NCBI GenBank assembly: GCA_016919625.1
Contig: JACXTP010000121.1
Span: 1-32,170, forward strand
From: Methanomassiliicoccaceae archaeon
GTDB lineage: Archaea; Thermoplasmatota; Thermoplasmata; Methanomassiliicoccales; UBA472
DNA length: 32,170 nt
Reading direction: 5' to 3'
Position numbers and translations under genes: made by a program. This document shows, piece after piece, positions 18,952 through 25,513 of this stretch; within the stretch, counting starts at the first letter, position 1; every line of letters begins with the position of its first letter. The notes under the pieces were generated by a model, which was not told the origin of the DNA, made no database searches, and saw nothing but the letters and a program-made list of their open reading frames with translations.

Positions 18952-19475
18952 GGATCACCATCAGCGGACCCATCGGGTCCGGCAAGACCACGGTGTGCAA
19001 TCTCCTGTCCGAGCGGACGGGCATGCCTTACGTGGTCTCGGGTCAAATATTCAGGCAGATGGCGAAGGAGCGCGGCCTCAGCTTGGCCGACTTCGGTCGT
19101 TTGGCAGAGAAAGAGCCTCGCTTCGACATCGAGCTCGATCAACGCATGGTCCGTTTGGCCGAGGAGAAGGAGGACATAATTCTAGAGGGCCGCCTGGTGG
19201 CGCAGATGCTCACCCGGCACCACATTGCTGCCCTGCGCGTGTATCTGGACGCCTCGCTCGATGTTCGGGTGGACCGAGTGGTCGAACGTGAGGGAAAGGA
19301 CAGGGAGCAGGCCCGCACCGAGCTCATGGAAAGGGAGATGTCTGAGACCACTCGCTATCGGCGCTACTACGGCATCGATATTAGGGACCGAGGCGTATAC
19401 GACCTCATCATCGACACCGGCGAGCTCCGTCCCGAGGAGATCGTGGACAGGATAGTTGCCGCTGCGGGGCTGTGA
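18948..19475 (+). CDS. cmk: Cytidylate (CMP) kinase, archaeal type
   Basis: The track ORF (18837) starts inside the previous gene. The ATG at 18948 overlaps its stop (ATGA) and gives MRITISGPIGSGKTTVCNLL (P-loop). Confidence 0.88.
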   Translation: MRITISGPIGSGKTTVCNLLSERTGMPYVVSGQIFRQMAKERGLSLADFGRLAEKEPRFDIELDQRMVRLAEEKEDIILEGRLVAQMLTRHHIAALRVYLDASLDVRVDRVVEREGKDREQARTELMEREMSETTRYRRYYGIDIRDRGVYDLIIDTGELRPEEIVDRIVAAAGL

Positions 19476-19476
19476 G

Positions 19477-20448
19477 ATGCCAATGCTCATCAGGGATAAG
19501 GCCCCCCGGACCTCCGGGAGGGGAAAGGCACCGGAGGAACGCTCCATCGAAGAGCTGCTCCAGGCTGGTGTATTGGTCCTGGACAAGATGCAGGGGCCGA
19601 CGTCGCATCAGGCCACCGCTTGGGTGCGGGATGTCCTGAAGGTGGACCGGATCGGTCACGGCGGCACCCTCGACCCGAACGTGAGCGGCGTACTGCCTAT
19701 CGCGCTCGGCCGCGCCACCCGACTGACGGACCTGGTGCTCCGTTCCGACAAGCAATACGTCTGTCATATGAAGCTGCACCGCGACCGTCCCGAGGCCAAG
19801 GTGCGCGAGGTCTTAGGCACGTTCGTGGGCGACATCTATCAAGTGCCACCGGTGCGTGCCGCCGTGAAGAGGCAGATGCGTGTCCGTAGGGTCCGCTCCA
19901 TTGATATCCTTGAGATGGGGGGGCGAGAAGTGCTCTTCCGTGTCGATTGCGACGCTGGGACCTACATCCGTACCCTCTGTGTCGACGTCGGCGAGGCTTT
20001 GGGCGTGGGGGCCAACATGGCAGCTCTGCGCCGTACCCGCTCCGGCTCCATGGTGGAGGACCAGGCGATCACATTGCAAGACCTCACCGACGCGGTGGTG
20101 CGATGGAAGGAAGGTGACCCGACCTGGCTTCGCTCCATGCTCATTCCGATGGAAGTATTGCTGGAACCTCTTCCCCACATCATATTGAAGGACAGCGCCG
20201 TGGACGCGGTGTGCCACGGGGCGGACCTGGCCTGCCCCGGGGTGGTGGAGCTCGACGAAAGCATCGCCAAGGGAGCCACCGTGGCCATGATGACGCTCAA
20301 GGGGGAGGCGATCGGTCTGGGCATAGCGGCGGCAGCTGCGGTGGACTTATTGAAGGCCACCGATGGGCTGGCAGTACGCACCCAGCGGGTATTGATGCCC
20401 CCAGGGACCTATGCCAAGGGCTGGACCCTCAGGCAGAGGCCGGCCTGA
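19477..20448 (+). CDS. cbf5: tRNA/rRNA pseudouridine synthase Cbf5 (TruB family, H/ACA RNP catalytic subunit) with a C-terminal PUA domain
   Basis: ATG at 19477, one nt after the cmk stop. It has GPTSHQATAWVRDVLKVDRIGHGGTLDPNVSGVLPIALG (the catalytic Asp motif) and a PUA-like C-terminus. Confidence 0.92.
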   Translation: MPMLIRDKAPRTSGRGKAPEERSIEELLQAGVLVLDKMQGPTSHQATAWVRDVLKVDRIGHGGTLDPNVSGVLPIALGRATRLTDLVLRSDKQYVCHMKLHRDRPEAKVREVLGTFVGDIYQVPPVRAAVKRQMRVRRVRSIDILEMGGREVLFRVDCDAGTYIRTLCVDVGEALGVGANMAALRRTRSGSMVEDQAITLQDLTDAVVRWKEGDPTWLRSMLIPMEVLLEPLPHIILKDSAVDAVCHGADLACPGVVELDESIAKGATVAMMTLKGEAIGLGIAAAAAVDLLKATDGLAVRTQRVLMPPGTYAKGWTLRQRPA

Positions 20449-20903: not shown

Positions 20904-21947
20904 TCAATAGTTCAGGAGGCATTGCTGCCCAGCGCTGGGGACCGGACAGGCATCGATGCCCAGCTTCTGGCGTATCTCCCCTGCCAGTTCCGAGGCGTAC
21001 CCATGCCCCACATACACCATTCGGGGCGAGCATGCCTTCACAAAGGCCAACAGCTCGTCGTGGTCCGCATGGTCAGAGATGGCGAACTGCTCGTCCACAT
21101 ATCCCCGCTTGTTCCCGTTCGCCGCCCAGCCGCTCACGCTCGCCTTGCGGAATCGTCGCCCCTTACGGTTCGCCGACATGATCTCCTGCGTCATGCTCTG
21201 ACCATGGGCGCCGATGAGCACTCCCGGCGTGCTGACGTCCCCTGGCTCGTGCTCCTTGATCTCCAGGTCCAGACCGCAACGTTGCAGCAGCCGGCTGCTC
21301 TCGGAGATGGTCCCATGCACCCGGGGCTCAAGGTCGCGCAGGGCATGGATCAGCTCGTGCGTCTTGCCCAGGTTTGAAGAGGTGAAGAGAGCGACGGAGA
21401 ATCCCTGGGACAGCGAATCCTCGATCCAGTCCGTCATGACCTTGAAGATGCGCTCGGTGGGAGGGAAGACGTACTGGGGCTTGCCGAAGGTGGCCTCGGT
21501 CAGCAGCACGTCCACCTTGACCGGGCGAGCGCCCTGGATGCGGAACCGGTCCCTCGGGGAGAAGTCACCGGTGTAAAGCACCCTCTGCCCCTCGACGTCC
21601 ATCTCGAACATCACCGATCCGGTCACATGGCCAGCGTCGTGTAGTCGCACCTTGTCACAATGCTCTGCTTCGATGGCCCGGCCCTTGATCTCGGAGATGA
21701 AGCGCCTAGTGAACTCGGATGACACGATCCGATTAGGCCCCTTGCGCTCGAAGGTGCTGGGGATGTGGTCGGAATGGGCGTGGGAGGTGCAACAGACCGT
21801 CCCCTGCGGGACCTTCTTGGTGGATAGGCTGCGCGGGTCGAGATGGAAGCTGATGCCAGCGCCGCTCACCTCGATGCCGTTGCCGCACCTGACGCTGAGC
21901 GCACCCCCTTCCATGTCCGAACCTATACGAGGGCGAATATAGAACAT
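20904..21947 (-). CDS. Short metallo-beta-lactamase-fold / beta-CASP nuclease with no KH or other N-terminal RNA-binding domains
   Basis: 347-aa ORF with the motifs SHAHSDH (HxHxDH), DAGHVTGS, YTGDFS, LLTEATFG, ISDHADHDELLAFV and VYVGHGY. The C-terminal ASGW...ISDHADxxEL...HG layout resembles bacterial ligase-associated DNA-damage-response exonucleases. M12 (21914) is an alternative start. Confidence 0.75.
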   Translation of the reverse strand: MFYIRPRIGSDMEGGALSVRCGNGIEVSGAGISFHLDPRSLSTKKVPQGTVCCTSHAHSDHIPSTFERKGPNRIVSSEFTRRFISEIKGRAIEAEHCDKVRLHDAGHVTGSVMFEMDVEGQRVLYTGDFSPRDRFRIQGARPVKVDVLLTEATFGKPQYVFPPTERIFKVMTDWIEDSLSQGFSVALFTSSNLGKTHELIHALRDLEPRVHGTISESSRLLQRCGLDLEIKEHEPGDVSTPGVLIGAHGQSMTQEIMSANRKGRRFRKASVSGWAANGNKRGYVDEQFAISDHADHDELLAFVKACSPRMVYVGHGYASELAGEIRQKLGIDACPVPSAGQQCLLNY

Positions 21948-22012
21948 TTATCCTGGCATCATCGCAACTTTTAGATGCTGGCTCACTTTCGGGAAACCCC
22001 CACCTACACCCC

Positions 22013-22020
22013 TTTATACC
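22013..22020 (+). promoter_or_regulatory. TATA-like box TTTATACC upstream of the RadB-like gene
   Basis: It lies ~31 nt before the ATG at 22051. The same 8-mer recurs at 23070-23077 before the 92-aa ORF. Confidence 0.4.
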
Positions 22021-22050: not shown

Positions 22051-22782
22051 ATGGAATACACATACCTAGAGACGGAGGAGCACTCCCGCATCGGACTGGG
22101 CGCCAGTGCCGCCCGGTACCGGTCCCTGGTCACGTCCATACCGCCAGTGGACGCATTGCTGCGCGGATTGGAGCCGGGGACAATCACGTTCATCGATAGC
22201 TCCGACCGGCTGGTCTTCGAGCTGGTCAACCTGTTCTGCTTCAACGCGGTGAACGAGCTGCACGAGGAGGTGCTGTGGATCGACGGAGGGAACTCGGTGA
22301 ACCCGTACGAGCTGAGCGCCATCTGCAAACGCTACCGCGTGCCGCCGGAGGAGGTGCTGCACAACATCACGGTGTCGCGGGCGTTCACCGCCTACCAGAT
22401 GTCCACCCTCATCGAGGACATGCTGGACCCCGAGGTGGACCGCATCCGCACCGGCCTGGTGGTAGTATCCTGCTTCCCTGACCTTTTCCAGGACGCGGAC
22501 ATGAACTGGACCGAGTCGCTGCAGCTGATGCGCCGCGCCATGGAGAAGCTGCGCGCCCTGACCGAGGAGCGGTCGCTCATCACCATCATCACCAACTATG
22601 GCCAGGCCAAGCCCATGTCCCGCAAAGGCCTGCGCTCCCTTTTGTATGACAGTGCGGACCGCGTGGTCCGCATCGACGGCAAGGGGGTGTCGGTACGCAT
22701 CACCCTGCCCAAGGAGGGGGAGGGCATGCTCTACCGGCCAGTGGTGCGCAACCAGACCACCCTGGACGAGTTCCGGGCATGA
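22051..22782 (+). CDS. RadB/RadA-core (RecA-superfamily) paralog lacking Walker A and Walker B motifs
   Basis: 243-aa ORF preceded by ggtgaggg. It is collinear by eye with RadB: IPPVDALLRGLEPGTITFI (compare LD.LLGGGI..G.ITEI), LWIDGGNSVNPYEL (compare VYIDTEGTFRPERL), EVLHNITVSRAFTAYQ (compare EVLDNI.VARAYN..HQ), GLVVVSCFPDLF (compare LIVVDSLTALYR) and SLITIITNYG (compare .VVVTNQV). Where GxxGxGKT should sit it reads DSSDRLVFE, and no GK[ST] occurs anywhere in the protein. Confidence 0.7.
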   Translation: MEYTYLETEEHSRIGLGASAARYRSLVTSIPPVDALLRGLEPGTITFIDSSDRLVFELVNLFCFNAVNELHEEVLWIDGGNSVNPYELSAICKRYRVPPEEVLHNITVSRAFTAYQMSTLIEDMLDPEVDRIRTGLVVVSCFPDLFQDADMNWTESLQLMRRAMEKLRALTEERSLITIITNYGQAKPMSRKGLRSLLYDSADRVVRIDGKGVSVRITLPKEGEGMLYRPVVRNQTTLDEFRA

Positions 22783-22829
22783 TGGTGGGCCTTGCTTCCC
22801 CCCATTAGGTAGAGTCTAGGCATTGCCAT

Positions 22830-22878
22830 CGTTCTGTTGTGGAACGTTATTATTCATAAATTGTTCTGTCATAGAACG
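22830..22878. repeat. Two copies of a palindromic motif GTTCTGT-N4-GAACG with centres 32 bp apart
   Basis: cGTTCtgttgtgGAACg occupies 22830-22846 and tGTTCtgtcataGAACg occupies 22862-22878. AT-rich sequence (ttattattcataaatt) lies between them. Confidence 0.6.
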
Positions 22879-23068
22879 ATTTTAGACCGTTTTCATTTTT
22901 TGATCGTCATATGTTTACACCCTGGGTGCAAAGGTCCGACAATTTTTTTAAAAAGGGTTCCGGGTCACAGTCCCTTGGGACCCTCAGAACAATATGTGGT
23001 CTCGGCTGAGCCCACACCGTCCTCTTTCGATAGGTGACCTCACTTTCGGCCGACCCTCCCGGTTCGGG

Positions 23069-23077
23069 TTTTATACC
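23069..23077 (+). promoter_or_regulatory. TATA-like box (ttTTTATACC) upstream of the 92-aa ORF / polymerase pair
   Basis: The box lies 15-23 nt before the ATG at 23092 and ~30-38 nt before the ATG at 23107. This would fit a leaderless or very short-leader mRNA. Confidence 0.4.
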
Positions 23078-23091
23078 GTCCTACAGGTCGA

Positions 23092-23370
23092 ATGAACGGT
23101 GAGAGAATGGGACGGACCGTACCCACCTATCGCATGACGGCGGAGATGATGATCGACAGCTGGAAGGACTACCGACGGGCGCTGCCCCAGGAGGACCGTG
23201 AGGTCTTCGACCGTATGGTGAACCGCATACGCATGCACGCCTCCGCCTCCACCTACGCCATATTCAACGACCCCTTTGAAGGGGCGGTCCTCTCCATGCT
23301 CCTGGAGCAGGAGAAGGAGCTCGACAAGCTGAGACGGGAGGCGGCCGGCCATGCGGGGCTGGATCGTTGA
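23092..23370 (+). CDS. Hypothetical 92-aa protein (predicted helical); its 3' end overlaps the polymerase start by 20 nt
   Basis: Track ORF. An alternative start at 23107 is preceded by ggtgag, the SD-like motif used elsewhere in the window. I recognised no family by eye. Confidence 0.55.
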   Translation: MNGERMGRTVPTYRMTAEMMIDSWKDYRRALPQEDREVFDRMVNRIRMHASASTYAIFNDPFEGAVLSMLLEQEKELDKLRREAAGHAGLDR

Positions 23371-25513
23371 TTGCTATGCCGACCCCGCCCAGGACGCCAT
23401 GGTCACCTGGCTGCGGACCAACTCCGGGGTGGAGCGCCTGGAGGACCGGCGCTTCCGCCCCGCCTTCTACGTCTGGGCGCCGCAACACCGCCTCGCCGAG
23501 CTGAAGACCTCCATGCGCATGCTCGGCACCGCCGAGGTCTCCGAGGAGCGGCGGCGCATCTGGCTGGGGGAGAGGGAGCGCGAGGTGCTGCGGGTGGTGC
23601 CGTCCTCCTACGACCAGCTCACCCCCTTGGCCCGCACCGTGGACCGCTGGGGGCTGTACCGCGACTACAAGCTCTTCAACGTGGACTTCCGCATGGAGCA
23701 CCGCTACTTCATGGCCCACGACATCTTCCCCATGGGGCTGCTGGAGTACGACGGGCGCTTCCATCATCTTGACACCCCCTACCGCCTGGACTACGCCCTC
23801 CCCGACCTGCGCGTGTGCCGCCTCGGCCTCAAGGTGGAGGCCAGGCAGCGCATACCCACGATGGAGGACCGGTTGCTCTCCGCGCACCTAAACGATACGG
23901 TACTGGAGGGCGAGGAGGCGGCGGTGCTGGAGGACCTGGACCGCACCCTGCGCCGGATGGACCCGGACGTGGTGGTGACCGACGGCGGCGACGCGTTCTA
24001 TCTGGACTACCTGCAGGCTCGGGCCGACCTTCATAGCATCCCGGTGGAGCTGGGGCGGGACCAGGGCATGCGCCAGGCCAAGGGCAAGAGCTACTTCACC
24101 TACGGCCGCATCGTGTACAAGGCCCCGGCGCACAAGTTGCGCGGGCGCATCCACATCGACTCCGCCGGCTCATTCATGTTCGACGAGTCCGGGCTGCATG
24201 GCGTCATCGACCTGTCGCGGCTGTCCCGCATCCCGGTGCAGGAGATGTCCCGCCTGTCGCCGGGCACCGCCATCAGCTCCATGCAGGTGAACGAGGCCCT
24301 GCGCATGGGCACCCTGGTGCTGTGGAAGAAGAACCTGCCCGAGGACTTCAAGACCGCGGGGGACCTGCTCGTCTCTGACCGGGGCGGCTTCATCTACGAG
24401 CCCAAGGTGGGGCTGCACGAGAACGTCTCCGAGGTGGACTTCGCGTCGCTCTACCCGAGCATCATGGTGGTGCACAACATCTCCCCGGAGACGCTGCGCT
24501 GCGGCTGCTGTCCTGATTCCCGCCGCATCGTGCCGGAGATCGGCTACCCCATCTGCGAGAAGCGGGAGGGGCTGCTGCCGCGCGTGCTGCGCCCCATCAT
24601 CAAACGCCGCCTGGCGTTGAAGCGGTTGGCCAAGGAGGGCGGCCGCCACGCCGATGCCTACAAGGCCCGGGCCAAGGCCCTCAAGTGGGTCCTCGTCACG
24701 TGCTTCGGCTATACCGGCTACCGCAACGCCCGCTTCGGCCGCATCGAGTGCCACGAGGCCATCAACGCCTACGGTCGGGAGATCATGCTGCAGACCGCGG
24801 AGATGGCGGAGGCGCGCGGCTTCCGCATCCTGCACGGCATAGTGGACTCGCTGTGGCTGGAAGGTGACGGCGACGGCGCGGCCTTCTGCTCCGATGTCAC
24901 CAGGAGGATAGGCATACCGCTGCAGCTGGAGGGCGTGTACCGCTGGATAGTCTTCCTGCCCAACGTCAGCACCGGCGTGGGCGCCCTGAACCGTTACTAT
25001 GGCCTCTTCTCGGACGGGGAGATGAAGCTGCGCGGCATCGCCGTGAGGCGGGGCGACACCACCGGTCTGGTGAAACGCCTGCAGGGTGAGCTGCTGGAAG
25101 GCATGGCACGCTGCGTCGACGGCAGGGCGTTCCTGGAGAACGTCCCCGTGGCGCTGGCGACGACACGCCGCTTCGTGGAGGAGGTGCGTTCGGGCGCGGT
25201 CCCGCTGGACCAAATGATCATAACCAAGCGCGTATCGCGAGAGGTGGAGGAGTACAGCGACCGCAAGAACGAGTCGCTGGACGCGCTCAAGCAGCTCAAG
25301 GCGGCCGGTTTCCGTGTCCCGCCGGGGGAGATGATCGAGTACGTGGTCCTGGCCAAGGACCGCCGCACCAAACCGGCACAGTTCCTCGATGGCGACGAGG
25401 CCTACGATGAGGGCAAGTACGTGGACCTGGTGCTGCGGGCCACGAGCGAACTGCTCGCCCCCTTCGGCTACGACCTGGAGCGGATGCGGGCCGAGGTGGC
25501 TAGGCCAGGATGA
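23351..25513 (+). CDS. Family-B DNA polymerase homolog (PolB2-like) with degenerate 3'-5' exonuclease motifs and non-canonical motifs B and C
   Basis: 720-aa ORF. It has an archaeal PolB-type N-terminus (RFRPAFYVWAP) and an intact motif A (VDFASLYPSIM, aa 362-372). The motif B position reads KWVLVTCFGY, the motif C position reads HGIVDS, and the KxY-region analogue reads NRYYGLFSDGEMKLRGIAVRRGDT. Confidence 0.85.
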   Translation: MRGWIVDCYADPAQDAMVTWLRTNSGVERLEDRRFRPAFYVWAPQHRLAELKTSMRMLGTAEVSEERRRIWLGEREREVLRVVPSSYDQLTPLARTVDRWGLYRDYKLFNVDFRMEHRYFMAHDIFPMGLLEYDGRFHHLDTPYRLDYALPDLRVCRLGLKVEARQRIPTMEDRLLSAHLNDTVLEGEEAAVLEDLDRTLRRMDPDVVVTDGGDAFYLDYLQARADLHSIPVELGRDQGMRQAKGKSYFTYGRIVYKAPAHKLRGRIHIDSAGSFMFDESGLHGVIDLSRLSRIPVQEMSRLSPGTAISSMQVNEALRMGTLVLWKKNLPEDFKTAGDLLVSDRGGFIYEPKVGLHENVSEVDFASLYPSIMVVHNISPETLRCGCCPDSRRIVPEIGYPICEKREGLLPRVLRPIIKRRLALKRLAKEGGRHADAYKARAKALKWVLVTCFGYTGYRNARFGRIECHEAINAYGREIMLQTAEMAEARGFRILHGIVDSLWLEGDGDGAAFCSDVTRRIGIPLQLEGVYRWIVFLPNVSTGVGALNRYYGLFSDGEMKLRGIAVRRGDTTGLVKRLQGELLEGMARCVDGRAFLENVPVALATTRRFVEEVRSGAVPLDQMIITKRVSREVEEYSDRKNESLDALKQLKAAGFRVPPGEMIEYVVLAKDRRTKPAQFLDGDEAYDEGKYVDLVLRATSELLAPFGYDLERMRAEVARPG

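Follow-up and report, generated by a model that had tools for sequence, protein, structure and literature searches.

The question raised by this locus is whether a family-B DNA polymerase gene in which most signature motifs are altered encodes a dead paralogue or a specialized enzyme. The gene lies in a stretch of 32,170 nucleotides (nt), here called the window, which corresponds to positions 1 to 32,170 of contig JACXTP010000121.1, forward strand, in the assembly GCA_016919625.1 of a Methanomassiliicoccaceae archaeon. A preliminary description of the sequence had taken the open reading frame (ORF) for a PolB homologue that might be partly inactivated or specialized. We conclude, with a probability of about 0.9, that it encodes PolB2 (Dpo2), the catalytic subunit of the published iRadA–PPB2–PolB2 'mutasome'.

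23351-25513, + strand: PolB2 (Dpo2-type family-B DNA polymerase), uninterrupted ORF, 720 amino acids (aa)

PolB2 was defined as a third group of PolBs in archaea, one whose catalytic centres are disrupted and which is encoded together with an inactivated RadA paralogue and a small protein, arCOG07300 (Makarova et al., 2014; PMC4104785). In motif C the YxDTD of other PolBs is replaced by HxxxD, of which the His is invariant, and the Sulfolobus enzyme is a robust polymerase, devoid of exonuclease activity, that elongates primers whose ends are mismatched or lie opposite a lesion (Feng et al., 2022; PMC8764526). The complex has since been described as a PolB2:iRadA:PPB2 heteropentamer (1:1:3), together with the motif 401-IID-403 in the Sulfolobus islandicus protein and a conserved D(K/R) motif, and a type-1a operon of Methanomassiliicoccus sp. 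is listed in the supplementary data (Timinskas et al., 2025; PMC11791011). The preliminary reading was correct but not new, since the PolB2 family has already been named and characterized; the family's existing name was absent from it, as were the Exo III deletion and the two upstream partner genes described below.

Identity, fold and phylogeny of the polymerase

The similarity of the ORF to family-B polymerases greatly exceeds what chance would give. Pfam matches it to DNA_pol_B (E=1.2e-29) and more weakly to DNA_pol_B_exo1 (E=4.4e-6), phmmer comparison with the PolB chains of the PDB finds Thermococcales PolB at E ~1e-47, and hhalign, run with a profile of 73 homologues (39–75 % identity to the window protein) against an alignment of five canonical PolBs that includes the genome's own on contig C76, gives a probability of 100 with E=8.9e-73. 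An AlphaFold2 model built on the 73-sequence alignment has a predicted local distance difference test score (pLDDT) of 92.7 and a predicted template modelling score (pTM) of 0.90. Its top Foldseek matches are the 9N, KOD and Tgo PolBs (E ~1e-44, template modelling score, TM, 0.78), and it superposes along the whole chain on the DNA-bound 9N and KOD polymerases. The model indicates that the family-B fold is complete and that only the chemistry is altered.

This full-length structural match to replicative archaeal PolBs is the point in favour of a divergent replicative PolB3, a reading to which we give practically no credence and which the motif and tree results refute. The genome has a canonical PolB on contig C76, with the motifs FDIEN, NIEGYD, DFKSMYPS, KILMNSFYG and YSDTDS, and also encodes PolD, and replication is therefore independent of the PolB2 gene. 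The window protein, by contrast, has none of the exonuclease carboxylates and no YxDTDS. Clustering within the replicative PolB3 clade had been named beforehand as an outcome that would count against a specialized polymerase, and in our tree the PolB2 family is instead set apart from six canonical PolBs of the same genomes with a Shimodaira–Hasegawa-like approximate likelihood ratio (SH-aLRT) support of 100, the window protein being nested among Methanomassiliicoccales sequences.

Within PolB2 the closest curated models are two short NCBIfam entries named 'type B DNA-directed DNA polymerase', NF004416 (492.8 bits, cut-off 516) and NF004418 (445.4 bits, cut-off 692), which represent the 'inactivated PolB' euryarchaeal clade and agree with the window protein in length class, motifs and gene order. 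The scores lie under both cut-offs, so that neither model would name the protein, and it belongs to a somewhat divergent lineage of that clade.

Active-site and interaction motifs

Motif positions were placed by hhalign and by phmmer, in agreement with each other, and are as follows.

23807-23845, + strand: degenerate Exo I position LRVCRLGLKVEAR; DxE replaced, with G159 and K161 (hhalign)
23969-24013, + strand: degenerate Exo II position VVVTDGGDAFYLDYL; N...(F/Y)D reads G212...F216-Y217, the Asn being replaced by G212 and the Asp by Y217
24344-24391, + strand: FKTA (FxxA-type, aa 333-336) and a short helix, then D343-R344-GG, the 'D(K/R)' motif (conservation and AlphaFold2)
24437-24460, + strand: motif A DFASLYPS with the catalytic Asp363, invariant in the 73 homologues
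24500-24556, + strand: CxCC-x14-C cluster (C384, C386, C387 and C402), conserved in the PolB2 clade of the window
24683-24709, + strand: motif B K445-WVL-V449-T450-C451-F-G453, compared with KxxxNSxYG; Lys and Gly retained, with V, T and C at the positions of N, S and Y
24833-24850, + strand: motif C H495-G-I497-V-D499-S, the HxxxD signature of PolB2, compared with YxDTDS; second metal-binding Asp kept
24986-25003, + strand: LNRYYG at the KKRY position (LNRY is aa 546-549); both Lys lost, Tyr kept (hhalign)

The five motif strings of the preliminary description, which covered Exo I, Exo II and motifs A, B and C and had been aligned by eye, all lie at exactly the amino acid and nucleotide positions given for them, and both programs place them identically, so that the alignment had not been shifted. 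Its readings of the individual motifs also hold: Exo I is without Asp, Exo II has F-Y for F-D and has lost its Asn, motif A is intact, motif B is non-canonical and motif C keeps only the second Asp. Intact exonuclease motifs and a canonical DTD, for which it had allowed, were not found by hhalign. The hhalign comparison adds that the Exo III YxxxD segment is lost in a gap of ~39 residues after aa 280, and the proofreading site is destroyed. The earlier inference that proofreading is lost while catalysis is not excluded, as in a specialized polymerase, matches the published picture of PolB2 (PMC8764526, PMC11791011).

Several of the altered motifs are themselves conserved among the 73 homologues. 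Lys445 of motif B is invariant, as are His495, Gly496, Ile497 and Asp499 of motif C, and position 451 is occupied in the family by C, S or A. The D343-R344-GG segment occupies the position of the canonical Y-x-GG; Asp343 is invariant, and Lys334, Ala336 and Arg344 are at least 90 % conserved. F333-K-T-A is invariant in a set of 20 sequences and is followed in the AlphaFold2 model by a helix (aa 336-341), where the pLDDT is lower; motifs of the FxxA type are found in Rad51 oligomerization. In the cysteine cluster Cys384 and Cys402 are invariant and Cys386 and Cys387 at least 90 % conserved. The genome's own canonical PolB has no Cys at this site and Thermococcales PolB has a two-Cys loop there; the cluster may form a metal site or else a disulfide. 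The KKRY motif touches the primer-terminal base pair in RB69-type enzymes, and one may speculate that loss of its lysines in PolB2 might relate to tolerance of mismatched termini.

Ratios of non-synonymous to synonymous substitution rates (dN/dS) against close relatives are 0.09–0.14 for PolB2, 0.03–0.10 for iRadA and 0.06–0.14 for PPB2, and the value of ~0.1 rules out PolB2 as a pseudogene or decaying relic.

We note separately that one further genome from this family has a PolB2 match (G048:C5:593211-594990) split over three adjacent frames, by reason either of a pseudogene or of frameshifts in the assembly.

A possible mini-intein in related PolB2 genes

Among the 120 best homologues, 43 carry an insert of 165-167 aa in motif B (KWLLVT|CLD...THN|CFGY). 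All of these are ~900 aa long and fall among P0072-P0119 (for example P0078, P0113 and P0096), three being labelled Thermoplasmata or Thermoplasmatota. The site corresponds to window position 24698/24701, between Thr450 and Cys451. The insert fits a mini-intein, with a Cys at position 1, a TxxH motif, a terminal HN and a Cys at +1, and the Pfam Intein_splicing model matches it weakly in these relatives (E=0.0018, under the cut-off). Since the insert lies just before Cys451, this residue would be the +1 nucleophile in the intein-bearing alleles. Inteins are typically found at functionally essential sites. The PolB2 gene of the window has no intein of its own, KWVLVT-CFGY being uninterrupted, and two published papers on PolB2 make no mention of PolB2 inteins.

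These observations bear on the original 'inactivated polymerase' reading of 2008-2014, according to which PolB2 is a catalytically dead PolB paralogue with a purely structural or regulatory role. The extent of the changes speaks for it: motif C has replacements at the Tyr and the first Asp of YxDTD, motif B at its N, S and Y, and KKRY at both Lys, and all of the exonuclease carboxylates are replaced or deleted. We nevertheless consider it improbable, by a wide margin. Asp363, Asp499 and Lys445, the residues of two-metal catalysis and triphosphate binding, are invariant in the 73 sequences, dN/dS is low, a mini-intein that looks competent for splicing is kept in motif B of sister alleles, and Sulfolobus Dpo2, whose motif is likewise HxxxD (IID), incorporates nucleotides as actively as Dpo1 does (Feng et al., 2022; PMC8764526).

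Partner genes and operon organization

Two genes upstream of PolB2 and in the same orientation encode the expected partners.

22051-22782, + strand: iRadA, 243 aa, Rad51 fold, no Walker A, C-terminal QTTLDEF resembling a PCNA-interacting peptide (PIP)
23107-23370, + strand: PPB2 (arCOG07300), 87 aa from the second ATG, arm MGRTVPTYR; 20-nt overlap with the start of PolB2

The iRadA product consists of a Rad51/RadA core that has no N-terminal domain; it matches Pfam Rad51 over aa 73-189 (E=2.2e-9), and the Walker A motif (GxxxxGK[ST]) is absent from it and from all of its orthologues (0/65). Its C-terminal tail, NQTTLDEFRA, is of the QxxLxxF type, and a similar PIP-like tail is present in 50 of 65 orthologues. 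In the C-terminus of PolB2 (ending ...FGYDLERMRAEVARPG) no QxxLxxF-type motif was seen by eye, no motif search having been run there. Clamp-binding motifs have been reported mostly in iRadA and rarely in both iRadA and PolB2 (PMC11791011).

PPB2 is predicted by AlphaFold2 (pLDDT 82) to be all-helical, with a free N-terminal arm and three main helices (8-25, 28-43 and 56-85). An N-terminal 'MGRT' arm with Arg3 and Arg9 has been described for this protein (PMC11791011); the product begins MGRT in 65 of 70 orthologues, and all of 42 sequences share M1, G2, R3, T4 and R9. An ATG farther upstream, at 23092, is ruled out as the start, being missing in the related loci L010 and L011 while orthologues begin MGRT.

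We compared the operon among the 80 closest loci, which belong to Thermoplasmatota, Methanoperedens, ANME-1, Halobacteriota and Theionarchaea, and the co-oriented order iRadA–PPB2–PolB2 (type 1a) is kept in nearly all of them. Across Methanomassiliicoccales a longer block, Cbf5–MBL–iRadA–PPB2–PolB2–TctA, is syntenic. In the genus of the window the operon is split: a spacer of 324 bp (22783-23106) separates iRadA from PPB2, compared with ~12 bp in more distant relatives, and in close relatives the same junction carries 1.7 kb of extra DNA in L011 (4077-5755) and 3.6 kb in L012 (2158-5756). The junction is a hot spot of rearrangement in this genus.

Inspected by eye, the junction ORFs of L012 comprise two resembling zinc-type alcohol dehydrogenases or quinone oxidoreductases, a membrane protein and a Bat-type helix-turn-helix regulator. 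The insert of L011 is without long ORFs, and the PPB2 gene of L011 appears to be frameshifted. The MBL gene, which encodes a metallo-beta-lactamase (beta-CASP-like) hydrolase (20904-21947, − strand), lies divergently upstream of iRadA and adjoins cbf5 (19456-20448, + strand); this MBL–cbf5 arrangement beside iRadA is kept in many Methanomassiliicoccales loci and was seen in none outside the order.

Base composition and the question of horizontal transfer

The impression, gained from hand counts of about 67–70 % against about 60–63 % in the ribosomal cluster, that the gene is G+C-rich is correct: its G+C content is 67.2 %, compared with a genome mean of 57.3 %, and that of its third codon positions (GC3) is 0.924. 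No 2-kb segment of the genome reaches 67.2 %, and among the 926 ORFs of the assembly that reach 250 aa PolB2 ranks first in G+C content and second in GC3. Such a deviation, together with the inserted DNA at the iRadA–PPB2 junction of L011 and L012, might suggest that PolB2 was recently acquired from an island or mobile element, and that its G+C excess stems from this. We find this most improbable. The order of the Cbf5–TctA block is kept across Methanomassiliicoccales, the protein is nested among sequences of that order in the gene tree, and every one of the 30 genomes sampled from its family has PolB2. Moreover, PolB2 is more G+C-rich than its flanks in 67 of 72 loci, by a mean of 4.1 percentage points and in genomes of 25–72 % G+C, and the excess is therefore a trait of the gene family. 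Recent horizontal transfer is thus ruled out as its cause by vertical synteny, the gene tree and the family-wide excess. PolB2 is rich in Arg, Gly and Ala (Arg 11.1 %), and it is likely that the excess arises from this composition together with third positions that track the genomic bias.

A shared promoter element

Both units of the split operon are preceded by the same arrangement of sequence elements, CTCACTTTCGG, 20 nt, TTTATACC, GGTGAG and ATG.

21982-22020, + strand: iRadA promoter; CTCACTTTCGG (21982-21992, contains ANTTTC), 20 nt, TTTATACC (22013-22020)
23039-23077, + strand: PPB2–PolB2 promoter; CTCACTTTCGG (23039-23049), 20 nt, TTTATACC (23070-23077); GGTGAG at 23098-23103

The 11-mer occurs only twice in the whole 1.67-Mb assembly, before iRadA and before PPB2–PolB2, and the PPB2–PolB2 promoter block is invariant in L010-L012. 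Of 58 other loci, 36 have ANTTTC on the coding strand at a distance of 21-140 nt upstream of iRadA, compared with 6.6 expected from random windows of the same loci (the maximum of 1000 shuffles being 18), a statistic drawn from related loci and a short motif. In its extended form the consensus reads wwyACTTTCRs, after which come a C-rich stretch and a T/A-rich box, and where the operon has been split independently, in L024 and L043, ANTTTC is found before PPB2 also.

The ACTTTC-containing element resembles in sequence the damage-responsive element of Sulfolobus, AATAGTTTCRG, which is bound by Orc1-2 (PMC6061795); in the literature searched, ANTTTC is discussed for Sulfolobales only. The present genome has two Orc1/Cdc6 genes, with ATTTTC upstream of one and none upstream of the other, which is uninformative. 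A relaxed genome scan for the motif followed by a TATA box gave six sites, namely the two PolB2-operon units and four others, which by eye precede a RibD_C-like reductase, two membrane proteins and a small protein. A damage regulon in this genome gained no support from the scan.

Proposed function and its wider setting

The best-supported mechanism is the published one, in which PolB2 would act as an exonuclease-free translesion or extender polymerase with iRadA and a trimer of PPB2. By analogy with the Sulfolobus experiments, PolB2 would be an active, distributive polymerase without exonuclease activity, which extends mismatched or lesion-opposed primer ends in translesion synthesis. In published models a beta-alpha element before D(K/R) binds iRadA in the manner of the Rad51 oligomerization motif (PMC11791011). 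In the window protein this role would fall to the FKTA loop, and the N-terminal arm of PPB2 would bind the neighbouring D343-R344 motif. The complex may reach the clamp, proliferating cell nuclear antigen (PCNA), via the QTTLDEF tail of iRadA, and DNA damage may induce its expression, as described for Sulfolobus, by way of the ACTTTC-containing element, which precedes the TATA box by 20 nt in both units.

Some points weigh against this interpretation. The activity of the euryarchaeal PolB2 branch would be an extrapolation from the much shorter Sulfolobus Dpo2, and our tree covers, besides the PolB2 family of the window, only canonical PolBs of the same genomes. In addition, the ORFs at the four other promoter-like sites, which were inspected by eye and not by family search, include no evident DNA-repair gene.

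No Y-family polymerase was found in the genome of the window, which is 89 % complete, and the Y-family domain PF00817 is present in just one of 101 sampled Methanomassiliicoccales genomes. PolB2 is present in 62 of the 101, including 30/30 in the family of the window and 1/30 in family f7. Methanomassiliicoccales seem to rely on PolB2 without a Y-family inserter, which is a modest lead, as is the possibility that the promoter element is conserved from Crenarchaeota to Thermoplasmatota. Taken jointly, and as a tentative proposal that we consider doubtful, the ANTTTC Orc1-2 element might also control the PolB2 operons of Thermoplasmatota, Methanoperedens and Halobacteriota, being duplicated whenever the operon is split, and the PolB2 complex might be the only translesion polymerase of Methanomassiliicoccales. 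If so, the control would point to a pan-archaeal damage-response circuit, and the complex would have to insert nucleotides opposite lesions as well as extend from them.

The gene itself offers nothing new, since published work already covers PolB2 with its unusual motifs and both of its partners, and even includes an operon from Methanomassiliicoccus. The use of the analysis lies in a corrected annotation, PolB2 in place of 'inactivated' PolB; the PolB2 intein is, with the promoter element and the missing Y-family partner, a lead worth keeping.

Comparison with known systems

The closest known system is the PolB2 mutasome of Sulfolobus/Saccharolobus Dpo2 (PMC4104785, PMC7390963, PMC8764526, PMC11791011). 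The window protein has in common with Dpo2 the HxxxD form of motif C with Ile for the first Asp (IVD here, IID in S. islandicus), a dead exonuclease site and the D(K/R) motif, and the two systems also share a co-encoded ATPase-dead RadA paralogue, a helical MGRT-arm protein of ~90 aa and an ANTTTC-type promoter element. They differ in that the window protein has 720 aa and a full-size exonuclease domain, inactive and partly deleted, whereas descriptions of the Sulfolobus enzymes call them the smallest PolB2 known; in gene order, which is type 1a (iRadA–PPB2–PolB2) here and 3a (PPB2–PolB2–iRadA) in Sulfolobus; in the division of the operon into two units with a 324-bp spacer, unlike in Sulfolobus; and in that the present host has no detectable Y-family polymerase, whereas Sulfolobus has Dpo4.

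Replicative archaeal PolBs (that on contig C76, and 9N, KOD, Pfu and Tgo) share with the window protein the whole-chain fold and motif A, but the identity is only ~21–27 %, and the exonuclease motifs, motifs B and C and KKRY are all changed. Eukaryotic Pol zeta (Rev3) is likewise a proofreading-free family-B extender of mismatched or lesion-opposed termini, an analogy drawn previously (PMC8764526), although it is not orthologous, has other accessory subunits and acts together with inserters of the Y family, a kind missing in the present host. The Pol V mutasome of Escherichia coli (UmuD'2C–RecA) also combines a translesion polymerase with a protein of the RecA/Rad51 fold and with a small partner that is oligomeric (PMC11791011), but there the catalytic subunit is of the Y family and RecA is an active recombinase rather than a dedicated dead paralogue.

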